This document shows, one piece after another, positions 28,795 to 35,303 of a stretch of 49,667 bases of DNA. Within the stretch, counting starts at the first letter, position 1; every line of letters begins with the position of its first letter. The DNA is taken from the NCBI GenBank assembly GCA_963541585.1, contig CAUTUR010000001.1, forward strand, positions 1-49,667, in the 5' to 3' direction. The DNA is from an uncultured bacterium. Its GTDB lineage: Bacteria > Patescibacteriota > Gracilibacteria > Absconditabacterales > Absconditicoccaceae. The position numbers were made by a program, and so were the translations under genes. The notes below the pieces were generated by a model. The model made no database searches and was not told the origin of the DNA. It was given only the letters and a program-made list of their open reading frames with translations.

Positions 28795-31700
28795 TTACTT
28801 TTTGATAACATAGCCAATATCTTTGAGTTCATAACTATTATTTCTATAGACATCATAGATGACTTCTGCTACTGTTCCTCTCACTTCATCTACTAGGTGA
28901 GATTTTGGAGTGATTGAACTAATATACAGTTTATAGTTTCTCGCTCGATCACCTTTTACTTCTTCTAAGAGTTCATTTCTTACCAATCTTGTCATAATCG
29001 CGGAAAGTTCTCCTACGGTAATCAATTCTTTTGGTCTAAAGGTCGTCTTCTCTTTCTTCCCATCAGCATTCTTGTCTCCATTGAAGATCAGATATTCATA
29101 GGACTTTTTGATATACGGTAATAGCTCTGGATTTGCTTTCTCGAGATCAGTAAAGTGATCATTATAATTTCTACTTGCTTTTCTACAGAGAACATTTGTT
29201 GCAAATTCTGTCATGAATCTTGCAGCTTCTTCTCTGGTTAAGCTTCTCTCTGGAGCAAAGTCTTTCGTTCCTTGCCATTTAGTCAGTGAGTAACTGTAAA
29301 GCATCTGATGAGCTATTCTTAGAAGTTCACTCATTTTATTTCCTTGATCTATAGTCTCTTTATCAAGAGGATTGAAACATGTTGTTTTGATAGTGGGATT
29401 GAACACTTCTGTTTTTACTTGCTCGGTTTTTACTGGAGTTGAGGTATCTTTTTTTTCACAAGATCCATTTAAGCAAGAAGAATCTGGTTTCCTAGTTGAT
29501 CCTCCACCTCCTCCACTATAACCTCAAGAACTTGGTTGAGTAACAGTAATAGTAAAGATTTGACTTGTTTCGTTTCAAGCAGCATCTTTAACCTTTACTG
29601 TAACTGGATAGCTACCTATTGCAACTGCTAAAGTTCAGCTAATAGTTAATGTCGTTGCATCAAAACTTAATCATGTAGGTAAAGGAGAAACATCCCAACT
29701 AACAATTCAAACATTATCGGTTGCTGTAAGAATAATTGGAGTAATCGTCGAGTTAATATTATAAGTAACATCTGCAATAGTTCAAAGTTTTGGTGGGATT
29801 TCATCAATATCATTTAGAGTAATTGTATATGTTCCCGTAGCTGAAAGTCAGAATTTATCCTTTACCTCAACTACTAATGTATAACCACTCACTGTTTCAT
29901 AGTCTAATTTTCCATTAACTTTAAGTTTATTAGTATCAATAGTAAATACATTTCCTGTATTTCCTGAGATGATGGTATAGCTTAAAGTGTCTCCGTTATT
30001 TGAATCTACTCCATTAAGAGTAAAAACTTCCGTTCCAATTGGAGCATTTTCATCAAGCGTTGTAGAATCATTTCAGAGGGTTGGAACAACATTGATATTA
30101 ATAGGATCTGTAAGGTATCCAGTATGAGCATTTCCTACTTTATCTTTTGCAACAATACAGAGATATTTCCCATTCTGACTTGCATCAGTAAACTCAAAAT
30201 TTAAATTAAAAGATTCTGAAGATTGAGGATTTAAAGCTAAAATCATCTCATAATTCTGACAATTTTCGTCCTCTCAAACTCACCAAGTTATCGCTGAATC
30301 ATCATATTTTGGATCATTTTTTTCATTCTCTTTCCAAAGACCAGCTCCTCACTCATCCTTAACACTAAAGCTAACTGTCCACTTTTTTCACTGTTCTGAA
30401 TCTGTTTTTCTTATATTTGAAATGGTAGGTTTTATTTGATCTATAGTATATCCAGATTTCGTTAGGGAAGTAGTATTTCCTGCTTTATCTGTCGCCTTAA
30501 CAGTAATTTTTCAATCAACAATTGGTTTTTTCGCAGTGAATCTACATTGTACCCAAGTATTAGATTTTTGACTACAAGCAAAATCATCAAAATCTAAATT
30601 TGAATTATCACGATCAATCTCTACTGCTCACTGATCTATTCCATGATCATCTACTACATCTATTAGAAAAGGAATACTATCTTTTGTTAGGGAAGACAAA
30701 GGGGATAACGTAATATCAGGCTTTGAAGTATCATAAACTACTGCAAGACTATTCACTCATTCTGCTCCATTGTCATCTTTTGCAGAAATTTTTAGAATTC
30801 AAGTTTTATTAATTCATTTAAAGGTACAAACTACTTTATTTGTTGGACTATTATCAAAATCAACAGGATCTCCATATCCCAAATCCTGATTATTACAAAT
30901 GATTTTTTCTACTCCCGTATCTGAAGGATTTTCAATTTTAATATATTTGATTTTAAACGAACTTGGAGAGTAGATTGTAAATTTTCACTCTATAGTATGA
31001 TTACTAAGTGTAATGTTACTTGGATCAAACTCAATAATTGGCGGAAACTTAATTTCATTTTCTGAAACATTACCCACTTTATCAAAACATTTTATCTTAA
31101 CAGTATGTACCAATTCTCCTGCATTAAAACTAAGATTTTTAGAATCTCATACAACAAACGGAGAGATGGTTTGTGATATTCATCCAGCATCAGTATAAGA
31201 CAATTCACATTTATCAATACCTGCAGCACCAAAGTCTTCAGCACTTTTCAACGTCACACGTGGACTATGAATTCATGGTGTGGTATCAATCTCAACTTGT
31301 GCAGGTTTTGGAGCTTGAGTATCTATGAGATAACCTATTGCTTGTATAGATGCTGTAATCTCTCTTCCTCATTCAACTGTTTTCAAAAATTTAATTCAGA
31401 TTTTCCCATTTGGTCTTTCATGAGTAGAAGAGATTTTAATAGTACAATGGACTACTTTATCATCCGAAGGATCTAGAGTACAATTAAAATCTGAATATTC
31501 AACGGTAGTCTTCGCAGGATCTATAGACAGTACTCAATTATTTAGATCAGCGTTTGTTAGGGGATATAAATTCTTGAAAGTAAAAGTCGTATCCGTAATT
31601 TCTCTATTACTTTGCAGAGTTGGAGTATTGACAGAAAATTGAGCTTTACAGTCAAATTTGTCTTGTCATCGAATATTCAAGCCTTCAGAGATCAATCTAT

Positions 31701-33462
31701 CTCTCAAATCAGCAAAGGTACAATACGTAGACTGAACTCCAATATGTCTAAGCTTTGTAAAGTCCAAAATCCCTGCTTGATGTTTAGCATCTATAGCCTC
31801 CAAAAGCTTTTTATAATTTTCACTCGGATATCGATAGATACCTTTTACTTTTAATGCATCATCTTTAATAACGATACCTCAAAATTGACCATGATTAATT
31901 TGAGAGAAATCCCAATTTGAAATATCGTGAGTAAAACTTGAAGCTCTATTAAACATAAGCCACATACTAGTAACCTTGCTTGTATTCCAACTAGAAATAT
32001 CAGCATTAAATTTTATAGCATCTGAAAACACTCAACCCATATTAGTAACCTTACTTGTATCCCAATTCCCAATTGGTTGATCAAAGTTCTTGGCTCCTCA
32101 AAACATTCCTCACATATCAGTTACTTTAGAAGTAATCCAGCTTCCTATCGGTTGATTAAAGTTTGCAGCATTGTTAAACATTGCTTTCATGGTAGTCACA
32201 TTACTGGTATCCCAATTTCCAATTGGTTGATCAAATTTTGGCGCTCATTGAAACATAGCCTGCATGGTAGTTACGTTACTTGTATTCCAATTTCCTATTG
32301 GCTGATCAAATTTAGTAGCTCAATGAAACATCATAAGCATATTAGTCACATTACTTGTATTCCAATTTCCTATCGGTTGATTAAAGTTTATTGCCTGACG
32401 AAACATTGAATTCATCGTAGTAACCTTACTCGTATCCCAGTTTCCTATTGGTTGATTAAAATCCCTTGCAACATGAAACATAAAGGACATATCTGTTACA
32501 TTACTCGTATTCCAGTTCCCTATTGGTTGATTAAAAACTGTCGCTCAATGAAAAGTAGACTGCATATTGGTCACATTACTCGTATTCCAGTTCCCTATTG
32601 GTTGATTGAATTTATGAGCATAGTAAAACATTGAATTCATCGTAGTAACCTTACTTGTATCCCAATTCCCTATGGGTTGATTGAAATTCTTCGCACTCGA
32701 AAACATCGCTGCCATATTGGTTACTTTACTCGTATTCCAGTTGGAAAGATCTCCATCAAATTTTTCGGCTCAAGCAAACATTCCATACATATTTTCAACC
32801 TTTGAGACATCCCAATTAGTAAGATTCTGGTTAAAATTTTTCGCATTTCCAAACATCTGTCTTGTATCTTTTACCTTACTCGTATTCCGAGTTCCTATTG
32901 GCTGATTAAAGTTTATGGCTCAATAAAACATCGCCCCCATATTAGTTACCTTACTTGTATTCCAATGGGAAATATCAGCATTAAAACTGGTCGCTGTATG
33001 AAACGTTCACCCCATATTGGTTACATTACTTACATCCCAGTTTGAGATATCAGAGTTAAATTTCACAGCTCCTTGAAACATACTTGCCATTGAAAAAACA
33101 TTGCTCGTATATTGATTTGAAGGAAAAATAATCTGACTTTTAAAACTATGAAATAATCCATTTGCATTATCAGGGAACCAGACACCTTCCTTAAACTCCA
33201 CTTTATTAATTTCTTCAGTTTTAAGATTAAGTGTATTTACCATAGAATTCCATTTGGTCATTATAATTTGCCCTGTTCCAGAAGATGCTGGCTGAATTAT
33301 CAAAGTTTGATTCGTTTTATCCCAAACTCCATCCACATTCGTTCAAAGAGTAAAAGTCTGACTTGGCTCATTTACCTGAGCAAAGCTAAGCAAACTTCGC
33401 CCCCCCCCTAGGAAAACGAATCCTAGCAATGCGACTGCTAGCATCTTCCAGAAATTTTTCAT
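28795..33462 (-). CDS. Large surface adhesin-like protein, 1555 aa: signal peptide, about 15 DUF285/BspA-type 26-residue repeats, Ig-like modules, one cadherin-type repeat, SLH-like C-terminal domain
   Basis: Frame checked codon by codon from 29401 to 33462 with no TAA/TAG. Repeats of the form [23 protein letters not shown]. Cadherin-like [46 protein letters not shown]...LNDIDE. C-terminal [14 protein letters not shown] is SLH-like. ATG at 33460-33462. Confidence 0.8.
31900..33120 (-). repeat. About 15 tandem 78-bp coding repeats (DUF285 / surface protein 26-residue repeat)
   Basis: Strings such as ccaattggttgatcaaa and gtaaccttacttgtat recur every 78 bp. The plus-strand ORFs here (32077-32409, 32452-32634, 32681-32905) are their antisense shadows. 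Confidence 0.8.
33400..33408 (-). repeat. Homopolymeric G9 tract (C9 on the plus strand) inside the adhesin signal-peptide coding region
   Basis: Plus strand reads ttcg ccccccccc tagg. It encodes Gly-Gly-Gly at residues 19-21 of [29 protein letters not shown]. Confidence 0.9.
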
Positions 33463-33556
33463 TGTTATAATTTTTATATGTATAAAAAATAAGACATGAC
33501 CAAAATGTAAGGATTCTTTTTGATATTACAAGAAGAAATAACCTCCATAAAGTAGT

Positions 33557-35170
33557 TTACCATTTTAAAAATTTCATCTTTTCAGCTTGATTAGGAAGAA
33601 AAATATCAAGGTACTTATCAATAATAGCATAAACAAAATCAGAAAGATCAACAATACTTAGTTCTTGAGCAGAGATTCAAGGATATTTTCTTGCAAAAAC
33701 TTCTTTAACCTTATGTTGATTCTCATCAATAGAAAATCCTCTTAGGATCAGATTATTCTCTTTTATTATAGGTAAAAAGAGTTGTTTCGCTTTGCGATTC
33801 CAAAGAGAAGTTTTTGCTAATTGTCCTGCCTGATGATAAGAGAGGGTTTTTATTTTTTTGAGCTTTCATTCTTCTTCTTCAAAAAAAGAAAAGCTGATGT
33901 TCTCATCATTTTGATCTATTTCGAAGAAAGAGAAAGGAGTTTTATTGAGAAGAAATTTTTCTCATCACTCAAGACTAAGTTCAGGACTAGCAGGGGAGCT
34001 TCCTTTTCCTAGGTCTCTTGTTGCAAGGAGAGCTCCAGTTTCATGGGTAAAGAAAAGCATATCGCCAATCAATTCTGCTCCATCAAAAGTCAGATTTCCA
34101 CTTAATAATTCTTTACTTCCTACTTCAGAAAATTGAGCATCAAAATTAGTTACTTGATAACGATTAAATTTCCCACTAGATAAGGTCGTAATCATACTGC
34201 TTTTTGAGCCTCTTGGGAGAATACCATTATTGAGCAAAAATCCACTAAGAAGCGAAGATTTTTGATAATTGAGTTTCGGTTCAAGAGAAAATCTCTGAAT
34301 AAGCGTCTGATTTTCACTATTATGCTGACTGGTATAGAGAAAATCTTGAGAAAATACCAAATCTTCAAAATTTCAGAAGAGCGTATAATGCTCCCTTTCC
34401 TGGGTAGGAATATTCAGATCCACAACAAGAAAACTCCAAGCTTTAGGCAATTTATCATCAAAAAAATATTTTAATCCGCGACATACTTTTGATTTAGATC
34501 AAGTAAGCGGTAAGCCATAGGATAAACCTTGCTCTACCAGAGGGAAAAGCTCCGTTTCTGATACTTTATGTTTTACGACATTCTCAAGGGTTGTTTTAGG
34601 AATGTCATTAACTGAAATTAGATAAAATTTTTCGTTTTGTAAGTGAGTTTTAGCAATCTTCCCAGTTTGTTTGAAAAGGTGAACAGGAGCGAGTTTAGCA
34701 TTCGAAATTTCATAAATCAGAAGTAAACTCTCATCCTTATTATCTACCTTTTGTGAAGCACTAATCAACAAGAGCTTTTCTCAAAAAAATTGTACAGAAA
34801 CATCGTAAAAAGATTTTGGAAGTCTGATTTTTGCGATTTTTTTTACCGCATTAAAATTGATAAGAGAAGTACCGGACTCTTTAGGTCATTGAACAATCGT
34901 AAGAATCTGATTTTTTTTATCATAAAGAGGAATAAAAGCAGAGCTTGCACTATGAGCTTCTCACCTATTAAAAAATGGAGGATGAGTTTTTTTTACTTGA
35001 TAGAATTCTTGTTCAAGAGCTTCCTGTTTAAGAAGTTGCTTAATCTGTTTATTAAAATCCGCACAAGAACTGATTTCTTGTCGATCATGATTTTTTCAAG
35101 AGCTTGCAAAAGTAGCAAGTGGACTTATCCCAATAAGCATGGTCAGCAAGAAGAGGATTCCTTTATTCAT
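33557..35170 (-). CDS. Secreted hypothetical protein, 537 aa
   Basis: ATG at 35168-35170 with signal peptide MNKGILFLLTMLIGISPLATFASS; TAA at 33557-33559. Track ORFs 33965-34360 and 34499-34771 share this frame, and all gaps were checked. Lies directly upstream of the adhesin gene on the same strand. Confidence 0.7.
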
Positions 35171-35303
35171 CATCTCTTAGAAAAGATAAACGATACTGAT
35201 AGTAAGGTTCCATTTCTTTTTTTCAAGAAAGATTGCATTTTTCTTATCAAAAGGATTTTAACATAAAATTTTCTAAAAAGAGTCATAATTTTTTTTCAAT
35301 ATC

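Follow-up and report, generated by a model that had tools for sequence, protein, structure and literature searches.

A homopolymeric run of nine G residues (G9) lies within the signal-peptide codons of a gene for a 1555-amino acid (aa) surface protein, here called the adhesin, in the genome of an uncultured oral bacterium of the SR1/Absconditabacteria. The gene is carried by the stretch of DNA analysed here, a whole contig of 49,667 nucleotides (nt) (CAUTUR010000001.1 of assembly GCA_963541585.1), referred to below as the window. We propose, with a probability of about 0.7, that the tract is a slipped-strand phase-variation switch acting on translation of the adhesin. This reading, already put forward in an earlier note on the same DNA, is supported by differences in tract length between assemblies (G6, G9 and G10), by the premature stop found in G10 alleles whose gene body remains open, and by the presence of the tract in a sister species. 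The mechanism is most likely a classical one in a lineage new for a poly-G slippage switch. The human mouth is home to SR1/Absconditabacteria, ultrasmall bacteria that are mostly uncultured and presumably live attached to other bacterial cells.

Position and reading frame of the tract

The adhesin gene is read from the minus strand with TGA as a glycine codon (see below). Its start codon (ATG at 33462) is separated from the tract by 54 nt, and the codons CTA GGG GGG GGG CGA, which include three consecutive glycines (Gly3), place the assembled state in frame. On the plus strand the context is ...CTTCG CCCCCCCCC TAGG..., in which the nine C residues are positions 33400–33408. The earlier note had given this position within the signal-peptide codons, this distance from the start of the open reading frame (ORF) and an in-frame, or ON, assembly; position and frame are confirmed, and the ON state is borne out by the codons just cited in an open 1555-aa ORF. 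To judge from the succession of n-, h- and c-regions, the N-terminus is probably a Sec signal peptide in which Gly3 stands between the hydrophobic core and the SFA/Q cut site.

The tract can also base-pair with its own upstream flank (window 33396–33420, minus strand: TTCGTTTTCC / GGGGGGGGCGAA, 11 pairs including G-U). A terminator-like hairpin upstream of the adhesin was set aside, the match being this same pairing of the tract with its flank and probably a by-product of the sequence.

Length variation among strains

Genomes of the same genus are labelled G001–G016 etc., G000 being that of the window; L followed by a number designates an individual locus or record, and C a contig. Metagenome contigs were scanned with the pattern TTCGTTTTCCTA-N(6-13)-CGAAGTTTG, which returned eight records of the type found in G014, the sister species. 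Seven of these have G9 and one (L092) has G10, at 2.7x coverage; a match in a Bacteroidetes record (L093) was rejected as a chance occurrence of the pattern. Further records of the site were recovered by using the upstream beta-propeller gene as a syntenic anchor. The strain records derive from human oral metagenomes and the final tally, which includes the window and the G014 genome and counts L177 and L178 once, comprises 18 independent records. The tract is G9 in 15 of them (the window, L175, L176, L179, L188 and L189, together with the G014-type L085–L091, L084/L094 and L196), G10 in two independent lineages and G6 in one (L192). One G10 allele is found in L177, a scaffold of 529,822 nt, to which the Logan assembly L178 is 100% identical over 4017 nt; the other, in L092, belongs to another allele lineage.

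The earlier note had predicted that gain of a single base would disable the adhesin, and this is what the natural G10 alleles show: they reach a stop at codon 26, and in the +1 frame the body can be read without a stop over at least 350 codons, as far as the locus extends. The gene call in L177 has 1192 aa, begins just past the tract and is without a signal peptide. Over 3100 nt, L177 and L179 differ by one mismatch and two indels, one of them in the tract. The other, some 300 nt downstream of the tract, is a duplication of the 5 nt AATAT, which disrupts the reading frame of L176 and of L179; differences between these near-identical strains are thus mostly of the slippage type. In the comparison of L092 with its relatives, the tract is the sole indel inside the compared gene sequences, the few others being located in upstream A/T-rich or pyrimidine-rich runs. 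No other G/C run of at least 7 nt was found in 134 kb of strain DNA. The locus combines several of the features asked of a contingency locus: a 5′ in-frame homopolymer, truncation with an intact body, length polymorphism among strains and a surface-type product.

Conservation of the Gly3 motif and of the 5′ cassette

A motif ...F(F/L/V/I)GGG(K/R/S)... is kept in 12 of 14 homologous N-termini from genomes of the genus. Since the codons differ while the motif stays (Table 1), the three glycines are kept for their own sake at the protein level. Several lineages spell them as a homopolymer, contrary to codon preference. As regards orthologs, in which the earlier note had suggested looking for a tract at the same position, one is present in G014, and paralogous adhesins of G003 and G015 have comparable G8–G9 tracts at the equivalent point of their signal peptides. 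What the earlier note had named as telling against a switch, a constant length together with tract-free orthologs, is not what the assemblies show.

An identical leader, signal peptide and G9 are joined, after ...VNVASK, to two unrelated bodies in different metagenomes (in L085/L091 and in L086–L090, respectively), and two paralogs of G003 (C58 and C45; L062 and L083) likewise share one 5′ cassette. This suggests that adhesin bodies may be swapped by recombination behind a single switch cassette. No paralogs with the same 5′ cassette were found in the window's own genome.

Poly-G tracts across the genus

The comparison at genus level covered 17 genomes, in which a G8 pattern search identified 54 distinct G/C tracts of 8–11 nt, all of which were inspected. 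A first class consists of 5′ coding tracts located 40–233 nt past the ATG in signal-peptide proteins, the adhesins already mentioned among them (Table 1). In a second, a pilin-like gene with the prepilin motif G/FTLIE has its poly-G 40 nt past the ATG, in frame in G004 and out of frame in the ortholog of G008; the latter reads ...NLRGGDLLL followed by a stop, and its pilin body lies in another frame without a start codon. A third class is represented by hsdS, the type I restriction-modification specificity gene (PF01420), which is split in G005 at a mid-gene tract. As assembled, the product has 234 aa, and one more G would give a two-domain HsdS of 409 aa; this gene is a candidate for phase-variable restriction specificity.

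A fourth class is intergenic and promoter-like. The sequence TTGAC[AT] ends at most 10 nt upstream of the tract (on the G strand) in nine of the 54 cases, against a background of 0.7% calculated over all positions of the same loci. Seven of the nine also have a -10-like hexamer at a spacing of 15–17 nt, a promoter role being read from the consensus only. Two loci which a frame simulation had returned as OFF candidates (L043 and L070) were reclassified into this class, a proper start and a signal peptide being present downstream. One such site belongs to the window's own genome (G000:C21:15971–15997, TTGACAaa-G10-attgaTAAGCT, with G10 at C21:15980–15989) and is followed downstream by about four 45-nt tandem repeats and by an ORF that starts near C21:16300; a CRISPR reading of these repeats was rejected in favour of about four copies of a tandem repeat of about 45 nt preceding an ORF. 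The G014 ortholog (G014:C8:45778–45803) reads TTGACAaaa-G8, so that the spacer differs by one net base.

A fifth class is a highly conserved intergenic site, ...TTTACAAGCCGATTTTTT..CTATA-Gn-TAAATGTGGCTTTA..., in which Gn is 8, 10, 8, 9 and 8 in L033, L034, L035, L039 and L079 (G008, G004, G002, G006 and G001, respectively); an Rfam search with L034 and L039 returned no family. A last class comprises mid-gene glycine runs in housekeeping genes (FtsZ-like, RecA-like and CCA-enzyme-like), which look like plain codon runs.

On the sequences inspected, the distribution of tracts in the genus is that of classical contingency loci. Whether it amounts to a genus-wide poly-G phasome in the genus of SR1 human oral taxon HOT-345, including adhesins, the pilin-like gene, hsdS and promoter spacers together with a portable, recombining 5′ cassette, is a wider proposal which we hold at even odds.

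A further tract in the window's own genome is a C8 at G000:C4:11337–11344, 49 nt past a plus-strand ATG. One more C would turn a 55-aa ORF into one of 246 aa, whose product is Ser/Thr-rich and then Glu/Lys-rich. It is possible that this is a second OFF-state locus in the genome, or that the real start lies downstream.

Proposed switch and alternative explanations

In the switch that we propose, the run would gain or lose one G during replication. A G9 run puts the start codon, signal peptide and 1555-aa body into one frame, which would be the ON state. With G10 or G8, translation would stop 4–12 codons past the tract and no adhesin would be exported, which would be the OFF state. The body of the OFF gene would stay intact and a later slip could restore the ON state. 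Alleles with GGG GGG GGG would be switchable, and those with GGA TGA GGA fixed. We infer that switching would be frequent and reversible, with heritable ON and OFF states in the population. The benefit could be bet-hedging in attachment to a bacterial host, or escape from phage or from host immunity.

The window has no other G/C run of at least 7 nt (run count on contig C1), in agreement with the earlier note, which had seen no second tract of this kind in nearly 50 kb. From base composition, the expected number of G/C runs of at least 9 nt is about 0.014 for the window and about 0.27 for the genome of 926 kb, in which two are observed; for runs of at least 8 nt, six are observed in the genome and about 0.9–1.5 expected. 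The run-length spectrum of the genome drops about 6-fold per added base to length 6–7 (30 runs of 6 and three of 7) and then climbs (four runs of 8, one of 9 and one of 10). The case against chance, which the earlier note had called a very unlikely source of the tract, is weakened when codon use is taken as the null, the fairer choice because the three glycines are conserved. Glycine is encoded by GGA in 45%, TGA in 22% and GGG in 13% of cases, and the 100 Gly3 windows in long ORFs would yield 0.23 GGG-GGG-GGG, with one seen, a difference that is not significant. The statistics from this genome alone, in which the tract is unusual and not overwhelmingly so, are suggestive only, and the weight of the case lies in the sequence comparisons with other strains and species.

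This codon-based expectation, not far from 1, is among several observations that weigh against a switch. The tract is exactly G9 in 15 of the 18 assemblies; an assembly error is possible in L092, given its low coverage, and L177 and L178 may come from the same sample. The locus is also subject to changes of an irreversible kind. Deletion of window 28965–33555 in L185, where the breakpoints were mapped, leaves only the last ~57 adhesin codons, and L186 and L193 have the same junction sequence; in these deletion strains the beta-propeller gene lies directly next to what is left of the adhesin 3′ end and the CorC/CNNM gene. L192 carries a further frameshift near codon 133–190. Tract-free alleles, with TTT CTA GGA TGA GGA TGA (L180–L184, L194 and L195) or GGA GTT GGA TGA (L187, L190 and L191), are all intact at the tract site, and in L180 a CAA-to-TAA change makes codon 52 a nonsense codon. 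With deletion, nonsense codon and 5-nt duplication all inactivating the locus, G10 could be one more pseudogenising mutation at a hot spot.

Several of these observations favour the main alternative, in which the run is incidental: Gly3, conserved whatever its codons, would be kept for the signal peptide, the tract would be a passive hot spot, and G10 and G6 would reflect irreversible decay of a dispensable, fast-evolving adhesin. We consider this unlikely. Distant paralogs have runs of G8–G9 at the corresponding place in the signal peptide, also in another codon phase, and the tract has stayed uninterrupted although GGA and TGA are the preferred codons. G10 originated separately in two lineages of alleles, the readable part of the gene body being open in each, and tracts of at least 8 nt are in excess in the genus, where they cluster at 5′ ends and in promoter spacers. 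The comparisons with orthologs and paralogs and across the genus thus weaken the incidental explanation.

Mismatch repair bears on the slipped-strand switch in a different way. Matches to MutS_V (PF00488) and to a MutL-type domain (PF01119) are present in the genome, so there is no sign of a mismatch-repair deficiency as in Campylobacter, which counts against the switch without being decisive. The PF00488 ATPase domain is also carried by MutS2, and the match suggests mismatch repair rather than establishing it. Mismatch-repair deficiency raises slippage in Campylobacter; Neisseria and Haemophilus are repair-proficient yet phase-vary. If repair works in the present organism, switching would be closer to that of Neisseria and Haemophilus than to that of Campylobacter.

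Slippage at the RNA level, transcriptional or by ribosomal frameshifting, would have G9 and G10 genes both give a mixture of full-length and truncated product, in a leaky and non-heritable manner. RNA polymerase is known to slip on long homopolymers, chiefly A/T runs such as those of endosymbionts and of Thermus dnaX, and the intact body of the G10 alleles is compatible with partial rescue of this kind. We regard it as very improbable here: the tract is a run of G, for which such slippage is not the main documented case, heritable DNA length differences are seen directly, and no frameshift-stimulating element was identified, the hairpin being the pairing of the tract with its own flank. A sequencing or assembly artefact is hardly credible, since, error-prone as homopolymers are and poorly covered as L092 is, the tract has the same flanks in 18 independent records, which stem from several studies and several assemblers, the G10 of L177 belongs to a scaffold of 529 kb and recurs in the Logan assembly, and gene callers independently shifted the start downstream in G10 records.

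The adhesin gene and its neighbourhood

The features of the locus and the related sites in other genomes are given in Table 1. The repeat region of the adhesin matches DUF285 (PF03382) with E = 1.8e-203 and 663.9 bits (cut-off 25), and a periodicity of 75/150/225 nt is seen at 32005–32742. A match to Big_13 (E = 7.5e-9) was also obtained, as well as matches to Cadherin (E = 1e-16, residues 1134–1216) and He_PIG (E = 1.3e-14, residues 1228–1308). The last ~230 residues (query ~1310–1550) recur at 25–35% identity in many proteins of the genus and are likely to form a cell-surface anchor; an SLH-like match at residues 1400–1414 (E = 0.0077) is below the cut-off. Taken with the predicted signal peptide, this architecture points to a secreted, surface-type protein, with adhesion as its presumed function.

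A strict sigma-70 consensus was looked for between the beta-propeller gene and the adhesin and none was found, so that the adhesin may be co-transcribed with this upstream gene.

Table 1. Features of the adhesin locus in the window, and tracts and Gly3 spellings at related sites in genomes of the genus
Feature	Position or locus	Strand	Basis or remark
Gene for the 1555-aa surface protein, 36 TGA read as Gly	28795..33462	-	ORF with TGA as sense; Pfam
Start codon and predicted signal peptide, residues 1–29; n-region MKNFWK, then h- and c-regions; likely cut after SFA	33376..33462	-	Sequence pattern
G9 homopolymer (C9 on the + strand), codons 19–21, Gly-Gly-Gly	33400..33408	-	Proposed slipped-strand switch; G6/G9/G10 at orthologous site elsewhere
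About 15 DUF285 (PARCEL-type) repeats of 25–26 residues, residues ~110–520	31903..33135	-	Pfam; periodicity
Cadherin and He_PIG Ig-like modules, residues 1124–1308	29539..30093	-	Pfam
C-terminal domain, residues ~1330–1555	28798..29475	-	Recurs in proteins of the genus
94-nt leader between upstream gene and adhesin ATG	33463..33556	-	Sequence
Upstream co-oriented 538-aa beta-propeller protein	33557..35173	-	PF09826, 1.5e-8
Further 5′ coding tract, G10	G012:C3		
Further 5′ coding tracts, G11 and G9	G016:C31		
Further 5′ coding tract, G10	G015:C1		
HlyD-like protein, 5′ coding G9	G014:C7		
Pilin-like gene, G10, in frame	L075, G004:C3:125499-125508		Reads MMRNVGSKAQKNLRGGGFTLIEV...
Pilin-like ortholog, G9, out of frame	L047, G008:C9:22717-22725		Near-identical flanks
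hsdS (type I specificity, PF01420), split at mid-gene G9	L040, G005:C10:14772-14780		
Gly3 spelled GGA GGA GGG or GGA GGA GGA	G004, G010, G001, G006		
Gly3 spelled GGA TGA GGG	G002, G015:C4		
Site spelled GGT GGA ATA TGA / GGT GGG AGG TGG	G007		
CTA GGG GGG GGG CGA, G9	G014		Sister species; identical context
GTG GGG GGG GGT, G9	G003 paralogs C58 and C45		Different codon phase
ATA GGG GGG GGC, G8	G015:C7		

Organism and genetic code

The genome to which the window belongs (as contig C1) comprises 926 kb in 67 contigs and is 90% complete; its G+C content of 35.5% is the measured value that replaces the description AT-rich of the earlier note. It is assigned by its sequence to an oral SR1/Absconditabacteria metagenome-assembled genome (MAG) with genetic code 25, of the same genus as HOT-345. 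The closest named relative of the FtsH encoded in the window is that of SR1 bacterium HOT-345 (MPSQ01), with 89% identity, and other Absconditabacteria are further off; the MPSQ01 contig is G007:C1, which is in the same genus.

When read with translation table 11, the adhesin region splits into short ORFs, and whole genes appear with TGA as a sense codon. In the DUF285 motif MF-x-G-A, the first repeat has an ordinary glycine codon where five other repeats have TGA, and the cadherin and Ig modules likewise have TGA at Gly-like positions. This identifies the code as 25, with TGA as glycine. The hint of a Mycoplasma-like system in the earlier note was wrong as regards the organism: code 4, with TGA as tryptophan, is ruled out by the glycine positions and by the SR1 relatives, and the ORF needs TGA as sense.

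Implications

If the genus-wide phasome is real, it would be the first system of contingency loci to be recognised within the Candidate Phyla Radiation (CPR), and would imply stochastic control of host attachment and of restriction specificity in episymbionts. With a heritable and reversible adhesin switch, cells that differ in their attachment repertoires would be present in a population at all times, and the tracts of the pilin-like gene, of the restriction specificity gene and of the promoter-like sites point the same way. Attempts at cultivation would be affected, as the ON state may be needed for host binding, and "pseudogenes" at G tracts in MAGs may be OFF phases. The switch would also bear on strain tracking in transmission studies and on antibody-based cell capture through predicted surface proteins.

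Comparison with known systems

A full-text literature search, in which papers on CPR and phase variation were only partly covered, found no paper joining Absconditabacteria or Patescibacteria with phase variation through simple sequence repeats; matches to Absconditabacteria and "homopolymer" were, to judge from their titles and abstracts, surveys of microbiomes and of 16S sequences. The closest case in a related organism is a Gracilibacterium, also a code-25 CPR bacterium, with a hypervariable gene that carries an in-frame 9-mer (PTD) repeat and for which slipped-strand mispairing is discussed (Sieber et al. 2019, PMC6851277). Both are repeat-bearing surface genes. In contrast to the adhesin tract, the 9-nt unit alters protein length and sequence, and no homopolymer ON/OFF switch is described there.

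The Mycoplasma vlp, vsa and vsp lipoprotein families resemble the present system in having a conserved leader and signal-peptide cassette on different bodies, and in small genomes and host dependence. They belong to another phylum and use code 4 (TGA as Trp) instead of code 25 (TGA as Gly). The adhesin, unlike these lipoproteins, has no lipobox, and its tract is a coding poly-G and not a promoter poly-A or a site-specific inversion, no invertible elements having been seen. Promoter-spacer homopolymers act as switches in Neisseria meningitidis porA, opc and fetA, in Bordetella fim and, as poly-A, in Mycoplasma hyorhinis vlp. The G8–G10 tracts found in the genus between TTGAC[AT] and a -10-like hexamer resemble these, being located upstream of genes for secreted proteins and variable in length between species; they are other loci than the adhesin, whose tract would act on translation.

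The 5′ coding poly-G/C contingency loci include surface-structure genes of Campylobacter jejuni, pilC and lgtA/C/D of Neisseria and outer-membrane protein genes of Helicobacter pylori. The present locus differs from them in that the tract forms part of the signal-peptide region, where it specifies a conserved Gly3, in a CPR/Patescibacteria lineage where TGA is glycine, and from Campylobacter, which is without mismatch repair, in the MutS_V and MutL-type domain matches. It shares with them an uninterrupted run of 8–11 nt near the 5′ end of a surface gene, truncation by a one-base frameshift, length polymorphism among strains and the occurrence of several loci per genome.

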